A DNA stretch of 61,089 nt, counting the filler, from Globobulimina sp. (lineage: Eukaryota), in the NCBI GenBank assembly GCA_003354225.1. It is 9 parts of 9 records of this genome, joined end to end, with 100 filler letters (N's around TTAATTAATTAA, not from the genome) between each part and the next. Parts side by side here need not be neighbours in the genome. Positions count along the whole stretch, not along the records: positions 27,303 to 33,993 come from PIVH01000251.1; 8 more parts are not named here. One strand, written 5' to 3'. This document shows, piece by piece, positions 6,737-54,430 of the stretch (positions within the stretch are counted from its first letter, which is position 1; each line of letters begins with the position of its first letter). The position numbers and the translations under genes are program-made. The notes below the pieces were generated by a model. That model saw only the letters and a program-made list of their open reading frames with translations, was not told the DNA's origin and searched no databases.

Positions 6737-6836
6737 NNNNNNNNNNNNNNNNNNNNNNNNNNNNNNNNNNNNNNNNNNNNTTAATTAATTAANNNNNNNN
6801 NNNNNNNNNNNNNNNNNNNNNNNNNNNNNNNNNNNN
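6737..6836. other. Artificial contig spacer
   Basis: 44 N + TTAATTAATTAA (stops in all six frames) + 44 N. Confidence 0.98.
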
Positions 6837-13569: not shown

Positions 13570-13669
13570 NNNNNNNNNNNNNNNNNNNNNNNNNNNNNNN
13601 NNNNNNNNNNNNNTTAATTAATTAANNNNNNNNNNNNNNNNNNNNNNNNNNNNNNNNNNNNNNNNNNNN
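13570..13669. other. Artificial contig spacer
   Basis: 44 N + TTAATTAATTAA + 44 N. Confidence 0.98.
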
Positions 13670-20401: not shown

Positions 20402-20501
20402 NNNNNNNNNNNNNNNNNNNNNNNNNNNNNNNNNNNNNNNNNNNNTTAATTAATTAANNNNNNNNNNNNNNNNNNNNNNNNNNNNNNNNNNNNNNNNNNN
20501 N
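20402..20501. other. Artificial contig spacer
   Basis: 44 N + TTAATTAATTAA + 44 N. Confidence 0.98.
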
Positions 20502-27202: not shown

Positions 27203-27302
27203 NNNNNNNNNNNNNNNNNNNNNNNNNNNNNNNNNNNNNNNNNNNNTTAATTAATTAANNNNNNNNNNNNNNNNNNNNNNNNNNNNNNNNNNNNNNNNNN
27301 NN
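27203..27302. other. Artificial contig spacer
   Basis: 44 N + TTAATTAATTAA + 44 N. Confidence 0.98.
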
Positions 27303-27315
27303 CAGTAAGCTAATA

Positions 27316-30300
27316 ATGGCGTCGCCGAGTGAAGCTAAAACAGGATTATGGGATGATGATTTTGGCCAAAAAGTAGATCTCTGTCGACGTATCCGCGAGA
27401 TACTAACAAATTACCCCGAAGGCATTGCCGTATTAAAAGAATTAATACAAAACGCAGACGATGCAGGAGCTACCATCATACGTTTCGTGTACGATCAACG
27501 CAATCATCCACGCGATAATTTATCCGAAGAGTTCTCCTCTTTATCAGACTTCCAAGGGGACTCACTTTTAGTTTATAACAATTCTTCCTTTACGCAATCA
27601 GATTTTGAGTCCATTCAATCCATTGGCTCCTCCATCTCAAAAAAAGACCATGTCAATAAAACTGGCAGATTTGGTTTGGGCTTCAATGCCGTTTATCATT
27701 TATCTGAGTTACCAGCCTTCGTATCCTCCGATTATTTGATATATTTTGACCCGCAATGTAAATATTTGCCAAATATAAAGCCAGGGAATCCTGGCAAACG
27801 CATTAATTTTGTCAAACGCAAAATTCTTAGCAAATATCCAAATCAATTTTATCCGTTCAAGTTGTTTGACAATGACATGGTCCATACGTTTGCCGGCACG
27901 ATATTTAGATTGCCATTACGCACAAAAAAACAATCCAAATCGTCGCAATTATCGAATAAATATTATACTGACAATGATATAAAATTAATGTACAACTCAT
28001 TGCTTAACGAAGGGGATAATTTCTTAATTTTTTTGAAATCCATCAATTGTTTGGAGTATTATACGTGGACTGATTATGATAAAAAAGAACCTACGTTGTG
28101 TTACAAAGTGAATATTGCGGATAAATTAAGTAAAAAACAGTTTGAATTAAGGTTTGTTTTACTTTACATTTTCACTCAAAAAAACTTTTCAGTGATTTAC
28201 ATCATGGCTTACTACAAAGGAACTACATCACTAAGATCCAAAAGCCTGATGCCAATATCTCATGGTTAGCATGTGACGATTTTAAATTTGAGACTTCCAT
28301 TTTTAAAAATGAGGTGGAACACAAATACGATTCGCATTGGATCATTTGTAATGCATTAGGTGGCGGATCCAAACAAGCCGCACAAATCGCTTCCAACCCA
28401 GACAACAAAAATCTGAAATTACTGCCCTACGGCGGTATCGCTGCCCGGATTTCGTGTAATGTACCATGGCAAATTAATGCTGAACAGGATAATGAAGAAA
28501 AAAAATCAAACGCACCACACTTAAAACGGCAAAAATCTGCAAATGCCATAATTCGACCGAAAGGATCATTGGTTGGCAGAGCGTATTGTTTTTTGTCATT
28601 GCCGCTAAAAAATGGATTGCCGGTGCACTGCAATGGATATTTTGAGTTATCCTCAAATCGAAGGGATTTATGGTGGGGTTCTGGCGATGATATGACTGGC
28701 AACGGCGTGTTGAGATATTTCTGGAATATGTGTTTGTTGCAGGATGTTATCTGTCGGTCATATGTCGAAGTTATTAATTATGCGAAAGAGTTGTGTAAGA
28801 ACAAGGAAATTAATATTGAAACTTTTTATAATTTGTGGCCGTATCAAATACCTGGAAATGAAGGCGATCCGTTTGAGATATTGACCCAAGAGGTTTTGAC
28901 TATAATTTCATCGTCGAATCAGTATAATTTCCTATATTCCAAACAAAATGGCGGCCAATGGCTAAAATGTTCGCAATCGGTAATCTCTCATAAAGCGGAT
29001 AACAAATTTATGGATACTTTGCTAAAAATTGGTTTGCCCATTGTTGAGATGCCTGGCTATCAATTAAATGTATTACAAAAAGCACCCAGACCGCCTACTA
29101 ATTTGTCACCAGATTATGTTCGCGATTGGTTGCGACAGAAAATAACCCAAAACAAGAAAACATTGACACTTATCAATGCGTTGCAAAATAGTGATAAAAT
29201 ATTGTTGATTGAATACTTATTAAATGATTTAAAATCGCTCAGTACGCAACAATTAATGATAAAATCTGATTTCCCGCAATGTTTACATATGATGCCGGTA
29301 TTACCGGTGTTCAATGCTCACAAATTGCGCTTATTTTGGTGTGATGATCAAATGGAAAAAGATATTGCGGAGCAGATATTCGGTACAAAGGAATATACTC
29401 AAAATCTGTATTACAGCGACGATAAACAATGTCTTAACATATTATCAGTTACAAAGCATAATAAAATATGTCCGGTGTTGATTGATATTAATATTTTATC
29501 TGAGGCAGTAATCCGCATTTTAAATCATAACAATTGCCATCAAAATACAAATTTAATTAATCTAAATTCAAAACAGAATGAGTCCAAATTTAGCGAGTTA
29601 TTAAAGATTGTGTTTGAAGCTAAATGTAAACGCGCGACATTTATAAACAACAAACGTTTTGATAATACGGATAAAGAACATTGTATTTCAAATGAATTAA
29701 TTGACGATATTTGGCAGTATATAGTGAAGAAACAGTTAAATTATAAATATTATCAATCCATTCCTACCGTTGCTGCGATGAATAAACAGCAGAAGTTTTT
29801 GTGTTTACCCCATCCAAATTCATGGATTTTAAAGCCAAATATGATAAATAATGCAGAACAGAAACAAAAGGATACAGATGTTACAGAAGAATTAGTGTAC
29901 GATCTGTTACTGCAGCACAGTCAATGCGTGGTATTAGATTCATCCGTTAACAGTATATCACAGGATATCTTATCTAAGCATAACGCGTTATATTCCTGCT
30001 CCAAAATTGAGAATGTTTTAAAATTAATCTCTATTTTACCCAGCACCGTATTTACAGAGTGGGAGCAGAAAAAAGATAAATTATGCAAACATCTCCGCGC
30101 GTTGCGACATTTTTTAATTTCAAAGAAAAAATGGAATCAAAATACGAGGTTATCCTCCACATCGCAAAAATTACTGCGATCGTTACCAATCTATGATGTT
30201 TATTGCAGTGAGACAGAGACAGAGCGCATTTTGAGTGACCTTACTGCGGCAAATAAATATATGGCACCAAATATCTCCATTGACCCATGTTTATTATCGG

Positions 30301-31700
30301 AACAATTTATATGTATCAAAAAGGAAGAAAAAGAGCAAGGATATCATCAATTTTTGCAGTTGATTGGTATTAAACGCATGAACGTCGAACAATTTTATAA
30401 ACATAATTATTTTAATAAAATATCTACATTGAAAGATGAGGTACGCAATTCCACCATGTTGGAGATATTAAAGTATATTAAACGCAGTGATCAGACACAA
30501 AATTATAAACTAATTGAAATGATAAAATCTAAACAATGCATTCCGTCCAGGAATAATACTTTAAAACGCATCGCAAATTTATATGATCCAACCATTAAAG
30601 AATTTAAATATTTATTAGATCCAAACAAACATTTCCCACACAAATTATTCTGTACATCCGATATGTTGGCTATTTTAAGAGCTTTAGGTTTGAACATTGA
30701 ATTGGATCGAAATGCCATTATTTTGTCAGCAACTTCCATTGCAAACTCTGCCGCCAATTTAATTTGCGACAAACAACAAGAAAACAAATCTGATATCGAT
30801 GAAAAAGAAATTGCAACGGAATTAAATACAATAACCACACGCTCAAAATCATTGTTAAAATATTTAGACAATCATTGGGATGAATTATTTACAAAACAAC
30901 ACGAATGGAATATATTGCGCCAAGATGCCTGGTTACCAATCATCGCTCATTGCAAATCGACATTATCCGAAATTTCACGCTTTACACATCCTTTATTGCC
31001 ATATAAATCCATCCAACATTCAAATCATAGATTTGCGGCCTGCGCACAGATCCGCGTCATATCGTTATCTTCGCTGTGTTCCTCACAGTTTTATATTTTA
31101 AACATGCAGCTTCACAATCAATCATTGTTGAAAATATTAGGTTTGAATGACATTCCCAATGCACAGATAATCGCCAAACAATTGGTTCAAATCGCAAAAC
31201 AATACGGCACATTATCTGAAACATCTGAGCAACGCTTATCTTTTCAGGAATGGTTAGCAGCAAATATACCAGTTTTATATCGTACAATTTCGCACCAATT
31301 ATTTGGTAATCTCTCCCCGCGAACAACTAATAAATCATCGTCCAGCTCGTATACAGCCACTGCGACATCAAATGCCTCCTTTTTTTCATCCGCATTGAAC
31401 TTCATTAAAAACACCACCGATCAGGTCAATAATACGCTGGCTGCCGCAGCGGATTCGGCGAATGAAATGCAACAACAAACGGTGAGCAAGGAAGCAGTCA
31501 AGAATATATTTGACGGACATGCCTGGATTTGGGTCAATGGATACTTCCACGACTCGGAAAAGGTCGCATTTAAACACCCCTCATCAGATTCAATTAACTG
31601 CAGTCCATATTTGGAGGTAATATCTTCGTCGTATGCTGCGTTTAAAAAGTTATTCATGGAATGCAGTGTCCGCAGTAAATTCGAGCCCTGCGATTATGGC
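27316..31700 (+). CDS. Sacsin-like protein (Hsp90-like sacsin repeat region), 3'-truncated by a junction to phage DNA
   Basis: FGQKVDL..RIREIL..YP..LKELIQNADDAGA, KTGRFGLGFNAVYH, GTIFRLPLR, YCFLSLP..GLPVHCNGYFELSSNRR and LYDP; intron 28152-28219 joins the two ORFs. Confidence 0.9.
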
Positions 31701-31752
31701 AATATATACAAGTACAGTTTGATTGAATCACGGAACAGAAGACCATTGACTA

Positions 31753-32328
31753 ATGGACTGGGGCACAATCAAACCTGCTCTCAAAACGCTCCTGTCGACG
31801 CTATCGGGTGTTGCGCTAGGTCAAACCGTGTGGCGAGATCAGAAGCGCCCACCAGCCAATACAACACCTAAAGCACAGCTAATATTGAAGGTCACACCAA
31901 TAGGCACCTTAGGGGTAGACGAGATACTGTATACCTACGATGTGCCTACTGATAAGAATGTGCCTACCCAATCCGGTAACCGTATATTCGTTTTGCAGAT
32001 ACGTGCAGAGACCTTTAGCCATAAGGACACAGAGTCTGCAACATTCTACCTTGAAGAGATACAAGACCAATTGAAGCTACCTAGGGTGTTGCAAGCTTTC
32101 TCAGACGTTAACATTAGCCTAGCTAAAGCAGAGGCTATTGTAGACTTATCAGAAAGCTTGCAAGTCAATAGCCGGGTGTTCTCAATGGCTAACCTAGACC
32201 TTCGCTTTAATGCAGCAATGAACAGAGTCGATCCGTTGGATGATGGCGATTACATTAGCAGCACTGAGATAGAGGGGACAGTAGACACCTTAACCAGGGT
32301 AGACGTCACCAACACTACGGTACCATAA
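31753..32328 (+). CDS. Phage neck / tail-terminator-like protein
   Basis: 191 aa; the pattern VWRDQKRPP..GVDE..GNRIFVLQI..ANLDLRF..ISSTEIEG resembles myophage gp12-like terminators. Intronless, with TAATG stop/start coupling to the next gene. Confidence 0.65.
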   Translation: MDWGTIKPALKTLLSTLSGVALGQTVWRDQKRPPANTTPKAQLILKVTPIGTLGVDEILYTYDVPTDKNVPTQSGNRIFVLQIRAETFSHKDTESATFYLEEIQDQLKLPRVLQAFSDVNISLAKAEAIVDLSESLQVNSRVFSMANLDLRFNAAMNRVDPLDDGDYISSTEIEGTVDTLTRVDVTNTTVP

Positions 32329-32873
32329 TGCCAGACACGCAACTATCATTAGCAGCACTTATTGCTGCATTACCTGATAACACTACAGGTAACATATCAG
32401 AGCAGATCATTAGGAACCTTGTAGAGACGTTCCGTGTTGATTATGGGGAGCTGTCGATATCGGGCACTGCACTTACTTCCATAGTGACGCCTGGTACCTT
32501 TGAGAAAGCCGCAGGTACCACGGTGCTAACTGTGTCCCCTGTAGCTAGCGGCATGTCTATGCCAGCCAATAATAGGCTTATGAGTACAGCAGCAACCACT
32601 AGGCTATGGTTGGTAATCTGCTCTACTTCATTAACTACTGTTGCTGCGAATAAAGAGGTTAGGCTAAGGTTGGCTAAAGGAGGGAGCACTATAGCCACCA
32701 GCGAGATACAACGCAAGGTGGGGTCAGGTGGTGATGTAGGGACAGGGGCGCTATTCTGCCTATGCTCAATGGCACCTACCAATTACATTGAGTTGTATGT
32801 TACCAATCAAACGGATAATACCGACTTGACCCTAGAGACAATGAACATGATAGCCATAGGGCTGCCCGCATAG
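32328..32873 (+). CDS. Phage hypothetical virion protein, C1q/BclA-like jelly-roll C-terminus
   Basis: N-terminal LPDNTTGNIS motif; beta-rich C-terminus ending NYIELYV; overlaps the stop codon of the previous gene. Confidence 0.6.
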   Translation: MPDTQLSLAALIAALPDNTTGNISEQIIRNLVETFRVDYGELSISGTALTSIVTPGTFEKAAGTTVLTVSPVASGMSMPANNRLMSTAATTRLWLVICSTSLTTVAANKEVRLRLAKGGSTIATSEIQRKVGSGGDVGTGALFCLCSMAPTNYIELYVTNQTDNTDLTLETMNMIAIGLPA

Positions 32874-32881
32874 GTGTTGTA

Positions 32882-33508
32882 ATGTCATACCCCAATACAG
32901 ACAGAGACGCTATTGATTCCGCTAGCCCGGCTAGGACTTCTAATAACCAGGTTTATACCCTACAGACTGTAGACGATGATGGTATGAAAACCAGCATTGC
33001 TACTTCCGTCGCAGCTGTGCAGTACACGGGCACCGCCCTTAATGGTGCTTTGATGGACGGTACAGGGGCATTGGATGGGAGCGACGCCAGGAACTTTTTC
33101 ATTACTCGGGGGCTTAGTGTAGGTACCTACGTGGTTGGGTCGGAAGTCACTAGGACCTATACCAATGCCAAGACTACCAAGCTCGTATCCGAAGAATGGG
33201 TATTACCAGATGCGGACGGTGGGGATACCTATGAATCTGTGCACCCTATTCTAGCAGGCACGATACCTATCATTGACATAGAGGCTCAGGCAGACGCCCT
33301 AGGTGCTTGGGAGTTTGGCTTTGGTGCAGGTAGATACATTGACCCGCCATGCAGATGGATGCATTGGAATGCGGCAGGCGATACTACGGTTAAGCTGGTC
33401 GACGATAACCACACTATTGCATTGACTTTGACAGCAGGACCACAGCCCTATTCTGTAGAGATGTTGTTCCTAGGCGAGGTCAATGTCATTGCCATAGGGC
33501 AAGCATAA
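32882..33508 (+). CDS. Phage hypothetical protein
   Basis: 208-aa intronless ORF starting 8 nt after the previous stop, with an SD-like AGGTG upstream. Confidence 0.65.
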   Translation: MSYPNTDRDAIDSASPARTSNNQVYTLQTVDDDGMKTSIATSVAAVQYTGTALNGALMDGTGALDGSDARNFFITRGLSVGTYVVGSEVTRTYTNAKTTKLVSEEWVLPDADGGDTYESVHPILAGTIPIIDIEAQADALGAWEFGFGAGRYIDPPCRWMHWNAAGDTTVKLVDDNHTIALTLTAGPQPYSVEMLFLGEVNVIAIGQA

Positions 33509-33509
33509 G

Positions 33510-33993
33510 ATGAGTTGTGGTGTAGCAGTGGCGGTAAGTCCTGTTTTTAACAGGGCAGACCCCTCTTATCATGAGACTTCATCCTTGTACTATGCAGGTG
33601 CGGGGGAGAGTCTCTCTTTAGGCACTGATCCACCGCCATTGAGGTTAGATAAAGATGGTCCTATTACTTTCGCATGGCTAGTTAAAGTTGCCATTGGTGA
33701 GGGTAACGGTGCCATGTATTCTTCATGGAAAACTGCAGGCACCAGAGTAGGCTTGTTTTTTCGATTAGATGCAGGGTGTCTAAACCTTCAGATGTTCCAT
33801 GATACTGGACCTAAGAGAATGGGCGTCACATCTTCTCTCAAAGTAGACACTGGCGGTTGGGTGAGGGTTGCTGCAGTATACGATGGCGCGGGGGATAATA
33901 ACGCAGCAGGTGTGTCCCTTTATGTAGAAGGCGTGTTAGATCCTGCAATGGTTATTGACTTCGATACACTTGACATTACAACCATTAACGCTA
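33510..33993 (+). CDS. Phage LamG/concanavalin-A-like domain protein, 3'-truncated
   Basis: ITFAWLVK and DTGGWVRVAAVYDG..VSLYVEG match the LamG-like pattern; starts 1 nt after the previous stop. Confidence 0.75.
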
Positions 33994-34093
33994 NNNNNNN
34001 NNNNNNNNNNNNNNNNNNNNNNNNNNNNNNNNNNNNNTTAATTAATTAANNNNNNNNNNNNNNNNNNNNNNNNNNNNNNNNNNNNNNNNNNNN
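33994..34093. other. Artificial contig spacer
   Basis: 44 N + TTAATTAATTAA + 44 N. Confidence 0.98.
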
Positions 34094-40777: not shown

Positions 40778-40877
40778 NNNNNNNNNNNNNNNNNNNNNNN
40801 NNNNNNNNNNNNNNNNNNNNNTTAATTAATTAANNNNNNNNNNNNNNNNNNNNNNNNNNNNNNNNNNNNNNNNNNNN
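40778..40877. other. Artificial contig spacer
   Basis: 44 N + TTAATTAATTAA + 44 N. Confidence 0.98.
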
Positions 40878-47556: not shown

Positions 47557-47656
47557 NNNNNNNNNNNNNNNNNNNNNNNNNNNNNNNNNNNNNNNNNNNN
47601 TTAATTAATTAANNNNNNNNNNNNNNNNNNNNNNNNNNNNNNNNNNNNNNNNNNNN
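47557..47656. other. Artificial contig spacer
   Basis: 44 N + TTAATTAATTAA + 44 N. Confidence 0.98.
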
Positions 47657-54330: not shown

Positions 54331-54430
54331 NNNNNNNNNNNNNNNNNNNNNNNNNNNNNNNNNNNNNNNNNNNNTTAATTAATTAANNNNNNNNNNNNNN
54401 NNNNNNNNNNNNNNNNNNNNNNNNNNNNNN
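54331..54430. other. Artificial contig spacer
   Basis: 44 N + TTAATTAATTAA + 44 N. Confidence 0.98.

Follow-up and report, generated by a model that had tools for sequence, protein, structure and literature searches.

A sacsin-like gene joined to phage-like DNA in a contig of Globobulimina sp., most likely by artefact

One contig in the draft assembly of Globobulimina sp. (GCA_003354225.1) passes without a gap from a sacsin-like gene into a block of phage-like genes. Does this contig record a transfer of DNA from a virus to a protist, or was it produced in the laboratory or by the assembler? The window, i.e., the whole stretch of 61,089 nucleotides that was analyzed, consists of nine separate contigs, ordered by falling length from 6736 to 6659 bases and separated by eight artificial linkers, in which sixteen runs of 44 N are paired around TTAATTAATTAA. 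The whole finding is carried by a single contig, the fifth of nine (27303..33993, 6691 bases, PIVH01000251.1). Position 33993 is the contig end, where the phage block runs off; an artificial linker, N44-TTAATTAATTAA-N44, comes next (33994..34093), so that the last reading frame is cut off there and whatever stands from 34094 on belongs to another, unrelated contig. As argued below, the most likely origin of the feature is an artefact of the laboratory or of the assembly, and not a virus-to-protist gene transfer.

Two halves unlike in origin and composition

The left half of the contig harbors about 1441 codons of a sacsin-like gene on the plus strand. Its first exon (27316..28151) carries a SACS domain: the Pfam family PF25794 matches at 27316-28269 with an E-value of 3.5e-77 and 260 bits against a curated cut-off of 32.8, which places residues 20-258 of the exon-1 ORF within the family, and a public contig (X1, record 1) shows 0 differences from this exon. 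A GT..AG intron of 68 nt follows (28152..28219), which is skipped in contigs of the public runs X1, X2, and X4; the joint was aligned at 28148/28217, the actual cut lying 3 positions further right. According to the ORF list and to the alignment of a sacsin homologue (P0002), the second exon (28220..31707) keeps its frame open up to the break. Residues 294-522 of this homologue, another SACS-like stretch, align to 27361-28044, residues 650-944 to 28338-29318, and residues 71-177 to 31392-31706, where the alignment stops, with an identity of 59-63% over the final 110-123 residues ahead of the break. Only one sacsin repeat is present on the contig; beyond the position of the break the homologue has 833 more residues, including a second SACS domain.

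The right half is of another composition. The GC content is 0.355 at 27303-31707 vs. 0.479 at 31708-33993, the observed/expected ratio of CpG is 1.23 to the left of the break vs. 0.62 to the right, and the word CTAG is found 0 times in the 4405 nt on the left vs. 14 times in the 2286 nt on the right. With the other eight contigs of the window as reference (21 CTAG in 53598 nt), the Poisson probability of at least 14 occurrences is about 1e-12. An unsupervised search for a trinucleotide change point stopped at 31729-31740, at most about 30 bases away from the break, with a log-likelihood gain of 358, the highest of the nine contigs (72-265 for the others). The change of composition claimed in the earlier note is therefore real and beyond chance in GC, CpG, and CTAG, but the break cannot be placed by GC content on its own. 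A value of 0.42 is found in the final 500 nt on the sacsin side, and on the next contig a region of PKD repeats that is host-like has a GC content of 0.457 with only 1 CTAG. GC was rejected as a marker of foreign DNA, since host coding sequence reaches 0.42-0.46. No drift toward the composition of the host is seen on the phage side.

Breakpoint and continuation of the host gene

The join lies inside coding sequence, between 31707 and 31708. Contigs from all four public runs compared (three studies) agree with the window to the very base 31707; beyond it they carry letters that are not those of the window, namely 1754 in X1 (record 7), 484 in X2 (record 15), 112 in X4 (record 19), and 520 in X6 (record 27). 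In X4, the first 30 letters past 31707 keep the sacsin frame open (...DYGNI-LNIIHEKHNK, read by eye), and the homologue reads DYGNILNIIHEKYNK at the position that matches this continuation. Judged by these alignments, the native gene continues beyond 31707, probably into a second sacsin repeat. An uninterrupted sacsin contig, a search for which had been proposed earlier, is thus available from each of the four runs, with a continuation that matches the homologue.

These contigs also refine what had been said of the junction. The four contigs and the homologue together with the composition change point set the break at 31707/31708, after ...DYGNI and ten bases to the right of the position of about 31697 given in the earlier note. 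A join by microhomology at GATTATGG had been put forward as well; the native sequence passes through GATTATGG to 31707, and this candidate site was discarded because independent contigs match past it. That the junction contains no N-gap holds, as does its location in the middle of an exon: the homologous protein crosses the break straight, and 31708-31709 reads AC, not a GT donor.

The latter point bears on a reading in which 31707 is the end of an exon, the phage-like DNA lies in an intron of the sacsin-like gene, and the transcripts diverge from the window through splicing. The diverging contigs stem from runs in whose contigs the 68-nt intron is missing and may be spliced RNA, and a shared ATAT lets the exon formally end at 31703, ahead of an intron starting with AT. 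Against this, there is no GT at 31708, and the only nearby one, at 31713, would add letters that are absent from the transcripts. The donor consensus of AT-AC introns is matched at only about 5 of 8 places. Moreover, the change to foreign composition and the start of ORF1 both fall within 45 nt of the break. Even as part of an intron, the block presupposes a real phage insertion, and this reading, which inherits all objections to one, is considered exceedingly improbable.

Had phage or prophage DNA really been inserted in the sequenced individual, in one of its copies of the gene, the event would be recent and possibly somatic or private; the exon would be broken there, with other individuals and transcripts intact. 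This reading fits a join that is gapless and internal to a single contig. The contigs with the uninterrupted gene are without the 68-nt intron and hence transcript-like, and differ from the window by 0-2%; as they may stem from other individuals or strains and would miss a broken allele, they are compatible with a private insertion. Sediment protists eat bacteria and are hence exposed to such DNA. Set against this is the conservation of the gene, which is uninterrupted in four of four public runs. The presence of the insertion in independent samples was not seen either: all ten depth bins at 31783-33993 were 0 in the four public runs, which weighs little given that these are contigs and probably RNA. 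No listed public run shared half or more of the words of a query spanning the junction, and no RNA run with this query was among the sequencing runs listed. The fragment itself, to be considered next, adds to these objections.

The phage-side genes and their relatives

Neither end of the phage fragment is complete. It opens with 45 nt (31708..31752, plus strand) that either lie between genes or hold the final codons of an upstream gene that is absent, with stops at 31720-31722 and 31724-31726, in both frames other than that of the sacsin gene. Four ORFs on the plus strand follow: ORF1 (31753..32328, 191 amino acids), ORF2 (32328..32873, 181 amino acids), ORF3 (32882..33508, 208 amino acids), and ORF4 (33510..33993, at least 161 amino acids), the frame of which is open right to the linker. 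The earlier description of four intronless, tightly coupled ORFs, linked by a TAATG overlap and by gaps of 8 nt and 1 nt, agrees with what is observed, and the terminator-like and LamG-like genes named there correspond to ORF1 and ORF4. A scan of 31500-33993 returned 1 promoter-like site, where 4.5 would be expected, and no terminator-like site.

Regarding ORF1, which resembles phage tail-terminator or neck "gateway" proteins, the match to the Pfam family PF23961 (24.1 bits, E-value 3.3e-5) stays below the cut-off of 27, so that ORF1 by itself does not qualify as a member. Among 40 aligned members of its own family, query included, 31 match PF23961 (E-values up to 0.01, best 1.1e-13). An AlphaFold2 model (pLDDT 89.0, pTM 0.79) predicts a terminator fold. 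With this model, the best Foldseek match is a neck chain of phage E217 (8fvh_M, E-value 3.3e-9); thirty PDB chains are found at an E-value of 0.001 or lower, of which the top seven belong to the necks or connectors of phages; lambda gpU (3fzb) stands at rank 13 with 1.6e-4. ORF2 is tail-fibre-like, with a match to phrog_24754 "tail fiber protein" at 3.5e-9. By tblastn it shows a weak match (30.9% identity, E-value 2e-3) in 70 records, 67 of which are Flavobacterium phages; in Flavobacterium Elemovirus phages, the matched gene adjoins that of the tail fibre. No match was found for ORF3 in Pfam or PHROGs, and its best score in the ESM Atlas, 0.77, is below the meaningful level and can serve as a lead only. 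ORF4 is LamG/concanavalin-like and exceeds the cut-off of Laminin_G_3, PF13385 (E-value 1.3e-6, 29.1 bits vs. 27.6).

Relatives of this fragment are scarce. The phage part has no blastn match among 50,697 phage records, and neither have ORF1, ORF3, and ORF4 by tblastn against phages. In IMG/VR, scans with ORF2, ORF3, and ORF4 revealed no relative, and a two-sequence alignment of ORF1 and P0001 retrieved one locus (L002) with 27% identity. One locus, also at 27%, was found in JGI metagenome contigs, and none in the GTDB genomes of 185,579 species with the patterns used. A search of 5.8 billion proteins with ORF1 yielded one relative, 64% identical, on a contig of 922 bases. In L002, the homologue of ORF1 stands between Neck1 (phrog_222) and the sheath gene (phrog_205), in a head-neck-tail module with a major head protein and a protease. 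The upstream side of ORF1 is cut by the join in the window, and the tail-fibre-like and LamG-like genes lie downstream. A separate, uninterrupted phage contig, or native phage sequence to the left of 31708, was not found in the phage, IMG/VR, JGI, and GTDB collections, and any overlap at the join therefore cannot be read. The near lack of relatives in these collections gives the lineage of the fragment some minor interest to surveys of phages.

The same searches bear on whether the right block derives from a phage at all. It could stem from a bacterium in the sample, as part of a cluster of the contractile-injection or tailocin type or of a gene transfer agent, the join still being artificial. 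The Foldseek list of ORF1 includes the pyocin R2 collar, diffocin, the PVC cap/terminator, and chains of gene transfer agents at E-values of 1e-4 to 2e-3, and three of the four ORFs (ORF1, ORF3, and ORF4) are without a match in cultured phages. Yet the best folds are the neck chains of the phages E217, Pa193, PhiTE, and Pam3, at 3e-9 to 3e-7, and most relatives of ORF1 match the phage neck-terminator family. In addition, the only relative seen in its context belongs to the module of L002, and the 185,579 species' genomes gave nothing with the patterns used. A source other than a phage is thus improbable.

Origin of the join and known systems

With a probability of roughly 0.87, two DNAs that were present in one sample but are unrelated, a protist sacsin-like gene and a phage fragment, have been joined artificially in this contig. 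One partner would be the nuclear gene of the protist, the other a fragment of a neck/tail gene module from an uncultured tailed phage or prophage, and the join would have been made outside the cell. An amplification or assembly chimera had been ranked above a real insertion from the start, and this ranking is borne out by the sacsin contigs that continue in all four runs and by the homologue. As to how the join arose, our guess leans slightly toward a template molecule that became chimeric in whole-genome amplification or when fragments were ligated for the library; an assembler mis-join at a low-coverage end of the graph is a more doubtful route. A frame of 1185 codons that reads through the junction (28314-31871) would be an accident of the join in which nothing functions, and it ought to be kept out of any protein annotation.

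A real insertion has to account for phage ORFs that are intact and for a composition wholly unlike that of the host. It must also explain a fragment that starts between genes and stops in the middle of one, as a random fragment would. No second junction, duplication, att site, or integrase accompanies it; since the contig breaks off within the phage block, ahead of any right-hand junction, the missing target-site duplication, att site, and integrase carry no weight. In earlier cases, phage sequence in the assemblies of eukaryotes reportedly proved to be contamination (PMC12507336; bioRxiv 10.1101/033464). Taken with the uninterrupted native gene, an insertion into the genome is very improbable.

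If it were true, it would offer a snapshot of the first step of DNA transfer from a prokaryotic virus to a eukaryote, with genes intact and composition unchanged, and intact phage structural genes within a eukaryotic nuclear gene would make visible how DNA from outside first enters such genomes. On present evidence, the locus is instead a quality flag: the assembly has contaminant phage DNA and at least one chimeric contig of host and contaminant. Read-level support is needed for calls of gene transfer, gene fusion, or truncated genes made from it.

With regard to known systems, the left part resembles sacsin and sacsin-like multi-repeat proteins (PF25794) in its N-terminal SACS domain, and the homologue shows a further repeat after the position of the break; the contig differs in having a single repeat and a sequence cut at the join. 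ORF1 shares fold and family with tail-terminator and neck gateway proteins such as chain M of 8fvh from Pseudomonas phage E217 and lambda gpU, although it scores under the Pfam cut-off for PF23961 itself. In L002, the sheath gene comes next to the ORF1 homologue, in contrast to the small tail-fibre-like and LamG-like genes that come next here.

As in chimeric templates and assembler mis-joins, sequences that are not neighbors are joined gaplessly at one point, and one partner is truncated in the middle of a gene, the native continuation of which exists elsewhere. Chimeras from multiple displacement amplification (MDA) are described in a review as mostly intramolecular, between segments less than 10 kb apart and often inverted, with an overlap of mostly 5-8 nt (PMC9984789). 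The contig is like them in joining templates that are non-contiguous in nature, a host gene and a phage module. It departs from the typical case in that a eukaryotic gene and a phage fragment are not segments of one molecule less than 10 kb apart; the partners come from two genomes, and orientation is meaningless, which lowers the specific MDA reading and not that of an artefact. In the mite Oppiella nova (PMC12507336) and the tardigrade Hypsibius dujardini (bioRxiv 10.1101/033464), phage or bacterial sequence in the assembly was at first read as horizontal transfer and, reportedly, later shown to be contamination. These cases share with the present one a draft assembly of a eukaryote, made from a sample that was not axenic, with prokaryote-type genes of foreign composition; there, the contaminants are described as separate fragments or scaffolds, whereas in the present contig host gene and foreign DNA are physically joined.

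Make-up of the window and limits of the contig

The window (61,089 bases) contains 16 N runs, each of exactly 44 N and paired around TTAATTAATTAA, and these N44-TTAATTAATTAA-N44 linkers (n = 8; 6737-6836, 13570-13669, 20402-20501, 27203-27302, 33994-34093, 40778-40877, 47557-47656, and 54331-54430) lie between nine contigs ordered by decreasing length, from 6736 to 6659 bases. Any apparent feature across a linker is a concatenation artefact. The whole finding is carried by the fifth of the nine contigs (27303-33993, 6691 bases), and the position 33993, where an earlier note had ended its phage block, holds as a coordinate in being the end of this contig. From 34094 onward, PKD-repeat, RCC1-like, and amino-acid-transporter genes are found, which are positionally unrelated to it. 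The contig at 34094-40777 displays a strong composition step of its own at about 37314, with a GC content of 0.457 to the left vs 0.327 to the right. The left part encodes four PKD domains in a frame of 686 codons; given its single CTAG, it looks like host and not foreign DNA. The right part harbors the RCC1-like and amino-acid-transporter genes on the minus strand.

The sacsin-like gene and its native continuation

The left part of the contig under study is a spliced eukaryotic gene, with a SACS domain at 27316-28269 (Pfam SACS, 3.5e-77) and a 68-nt GT..AG segment at 28152-28219, which is absent from the contigs of three public runs and beyond which the sacsin-like frame remains open from 28220 on. 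When a join-centred query of 1201 bases was searched in public sequencing runs by shared words, no run shared half or more of its words, and seven runs from three studies shared 8-33%. Four of these seven (X1, X2, X4, and X6) were compared along the whole contig. All four cover the eukaryotic part, none covers 31783-33993, and in each of them one contig stops matching the window at exactly 31707 and goes on with letters that do not fit (1754 in X1 record 7, 484 in X2 record 15, 112 in X4 record 19, and 520 in X6 record 27). For X4, the only run in which these letters were readable, their by-eye translation together with the last window base keeps the sacsin frame open, as ...DYGNI and then LNIIHEKHNK. 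P0002 from EukProt (1010 residues), the sole homologue identified with the 332 residues just before the break, is 59-63% identical to the sacsin-like part up to ...DYGNI, namely window base 31706, and continues beyond the break position with LNIIHEKYNK and then a second SACS-type repeat. The run contigs and P0002 therefore indicate that the native gene spans the break uninterrupted and that the break sits within coding sequence. The fusion described in the earlier note stands as a gapless switch into a phage-type block, with the coordinates corrected to a break at 31707/31708; GATTATGG, which had been taken for the join, lies entirely inside native sequence. That 31707 is instead an exon end, with the phage DNA inside an intron, is scarcely conceivable, as the GT donor is absent at the break and foreign sequence begins at most 45 nt from it.

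Over 27303-28902, the X1 contigs differ from the window in 0 of 1532 letters, and over 29672-31707 in 10/1148 and 15/862. Such an uneven mismatch over 27303-31707 points to a mixture of alleles or close paralogues of the sacsin-like gene, in the window contig or else in the run. The same differences bear on a phage insertion private to the sequenced individual: the runs with the intact gene lack the intron and are therefore probably transcripts, and, given their mismatches, they may represent other individuals or alleles, which would be compatible with a private insertion. We consider such an insertion very improbable.

Two further discontinuities were seen in the run contigs. Contigs of X1, X2, and X6 follow sacsin exon 1 to 27464 and then pass into unlike, AT-rich sequence, and a second X1 contig runs through 27464 uninterrupted with 0 differences; this divergence may stem from a paralogue or an alternative isoform, or may mark a repeat boundary. 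A 169-letter X4 contig (depth 3.4) links 30656 to 30708 on opposite strands. This inverted join, of a type that template switching produces, arises in that run and not in the window.

The phage-like block

Four ORFs lie to the right of the break, packed in prokaryotic style: the first two overlap at TAATG, and the later ones are spaced by 8 nt and then 1 nt. ORF1 (31753-32328) scores just below the cut-off of the Pfam phage neck-terminator family (24.1 bits vs 27), ORF2 (32328-32873) has a hit to a PHROG with tail-fibre annotation (3.5e-9), and ORF4 (33510 to the contig end) matches Laminin_G_3 slightly over the cut-off. ORF3 (32882-33508) has no family match, and none was found for it in Pfam, PHROG, IMG/VR, phage records, or the ESM Atlas. 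An exhaustive search gave 447 cluster representatives related to ORF1 at E <= 0.001, and when ORF1 was aligned with the best 39 of 150 listed relatives, 31 of the 40 sequences matched the neck-terminator family. Its AlphaFold2 model (pLDDT 89.0) matches 30 PDB chains at E <= 0.001, with phage neck chains at the top (E217 at 3.3e-9, then Pa193, PhiTE, and Pam3) and lambda gpU at 1.6e-4. The sole relative with visible context, in an IMG/VR locus (27% identity), has a Neck1 protein on one side and a tail sheath on the other, and a protease and the major head protein are located upstream of it. From these family, fold, and gene-context matches, the block is a neck/tail-module fragment of a tailed phage or prophage, in agreement with the earlier note. 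An origin in a tailocin-type or injection-system cluster is unlikely and would leave the verdict on the join unchanged.

No close relative of the block was found among phage records, IMG/VR, JGI metagenomes, GTDB genomes, or protein clusters, and among 5.8 billion clusters ORF1 has one relative above 40% identity, a 191-aa protein on a 922-base metagenome contig; the phage fragment at 31753-33993 comes from a poorly sampled lineage. Its left edge lies 45 nt upstream of ORF1, where stops at 31720-31722 and 31724-31726 shut the two other frames, so that an upstream gene is represented by a few codons at most, and its right edge is mid-gene, where the contig ends. Within ORF1, the 75 nt at 32089-32163 form an imperfect palindrome: blastn aligns them to their own reverse complement with 76% similarity (E 1e-7).

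Composition differs strongly across 31707, with a GC content of 0.355 to the left vs 0.479 to the right, a CpG observed/expected ratio of 1.23 vs 0.62, and 0 CTAG in 4405 nt vs 14 in 2286 nt (Poisson P of about 1e-12 for at least 14, from a background of 0.39/kb in the other eight contigs). An annotation-blind change-point search placed the switch at 31729-31740, with a likelihood gain that tops all nine contigs. GC alone is a poor marker of foreign DNA: it already reaches 0.42 over the final 500 nt on the sacsin side, and the host-like region on the next contig combines 0.457 with one CTAG.

Origin of the join

The host-phage join is most probably not a real genomic feature; we place the probability that it is an artefact at about 0.87. 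The chimera preferred in the earlier note is supported by the native gene continuing differently past 31707 in all four runs compared. A random contaminant DNA fragment would have been attached to a truncated host gene, and either a chimeric template or a mis-join would yield such a contig in a fragmented draft. A physical chimera and an assembler error may each account for the join. The join is chiefly a warning about the Globobulimina assembly. An MDA chimera specifically is doubtful, since a review (PMC9984789) describes MDA chimeras as mainly intramolecular with 5-8 nt of overlap, whereas the partners joined here belong to two different genomes.
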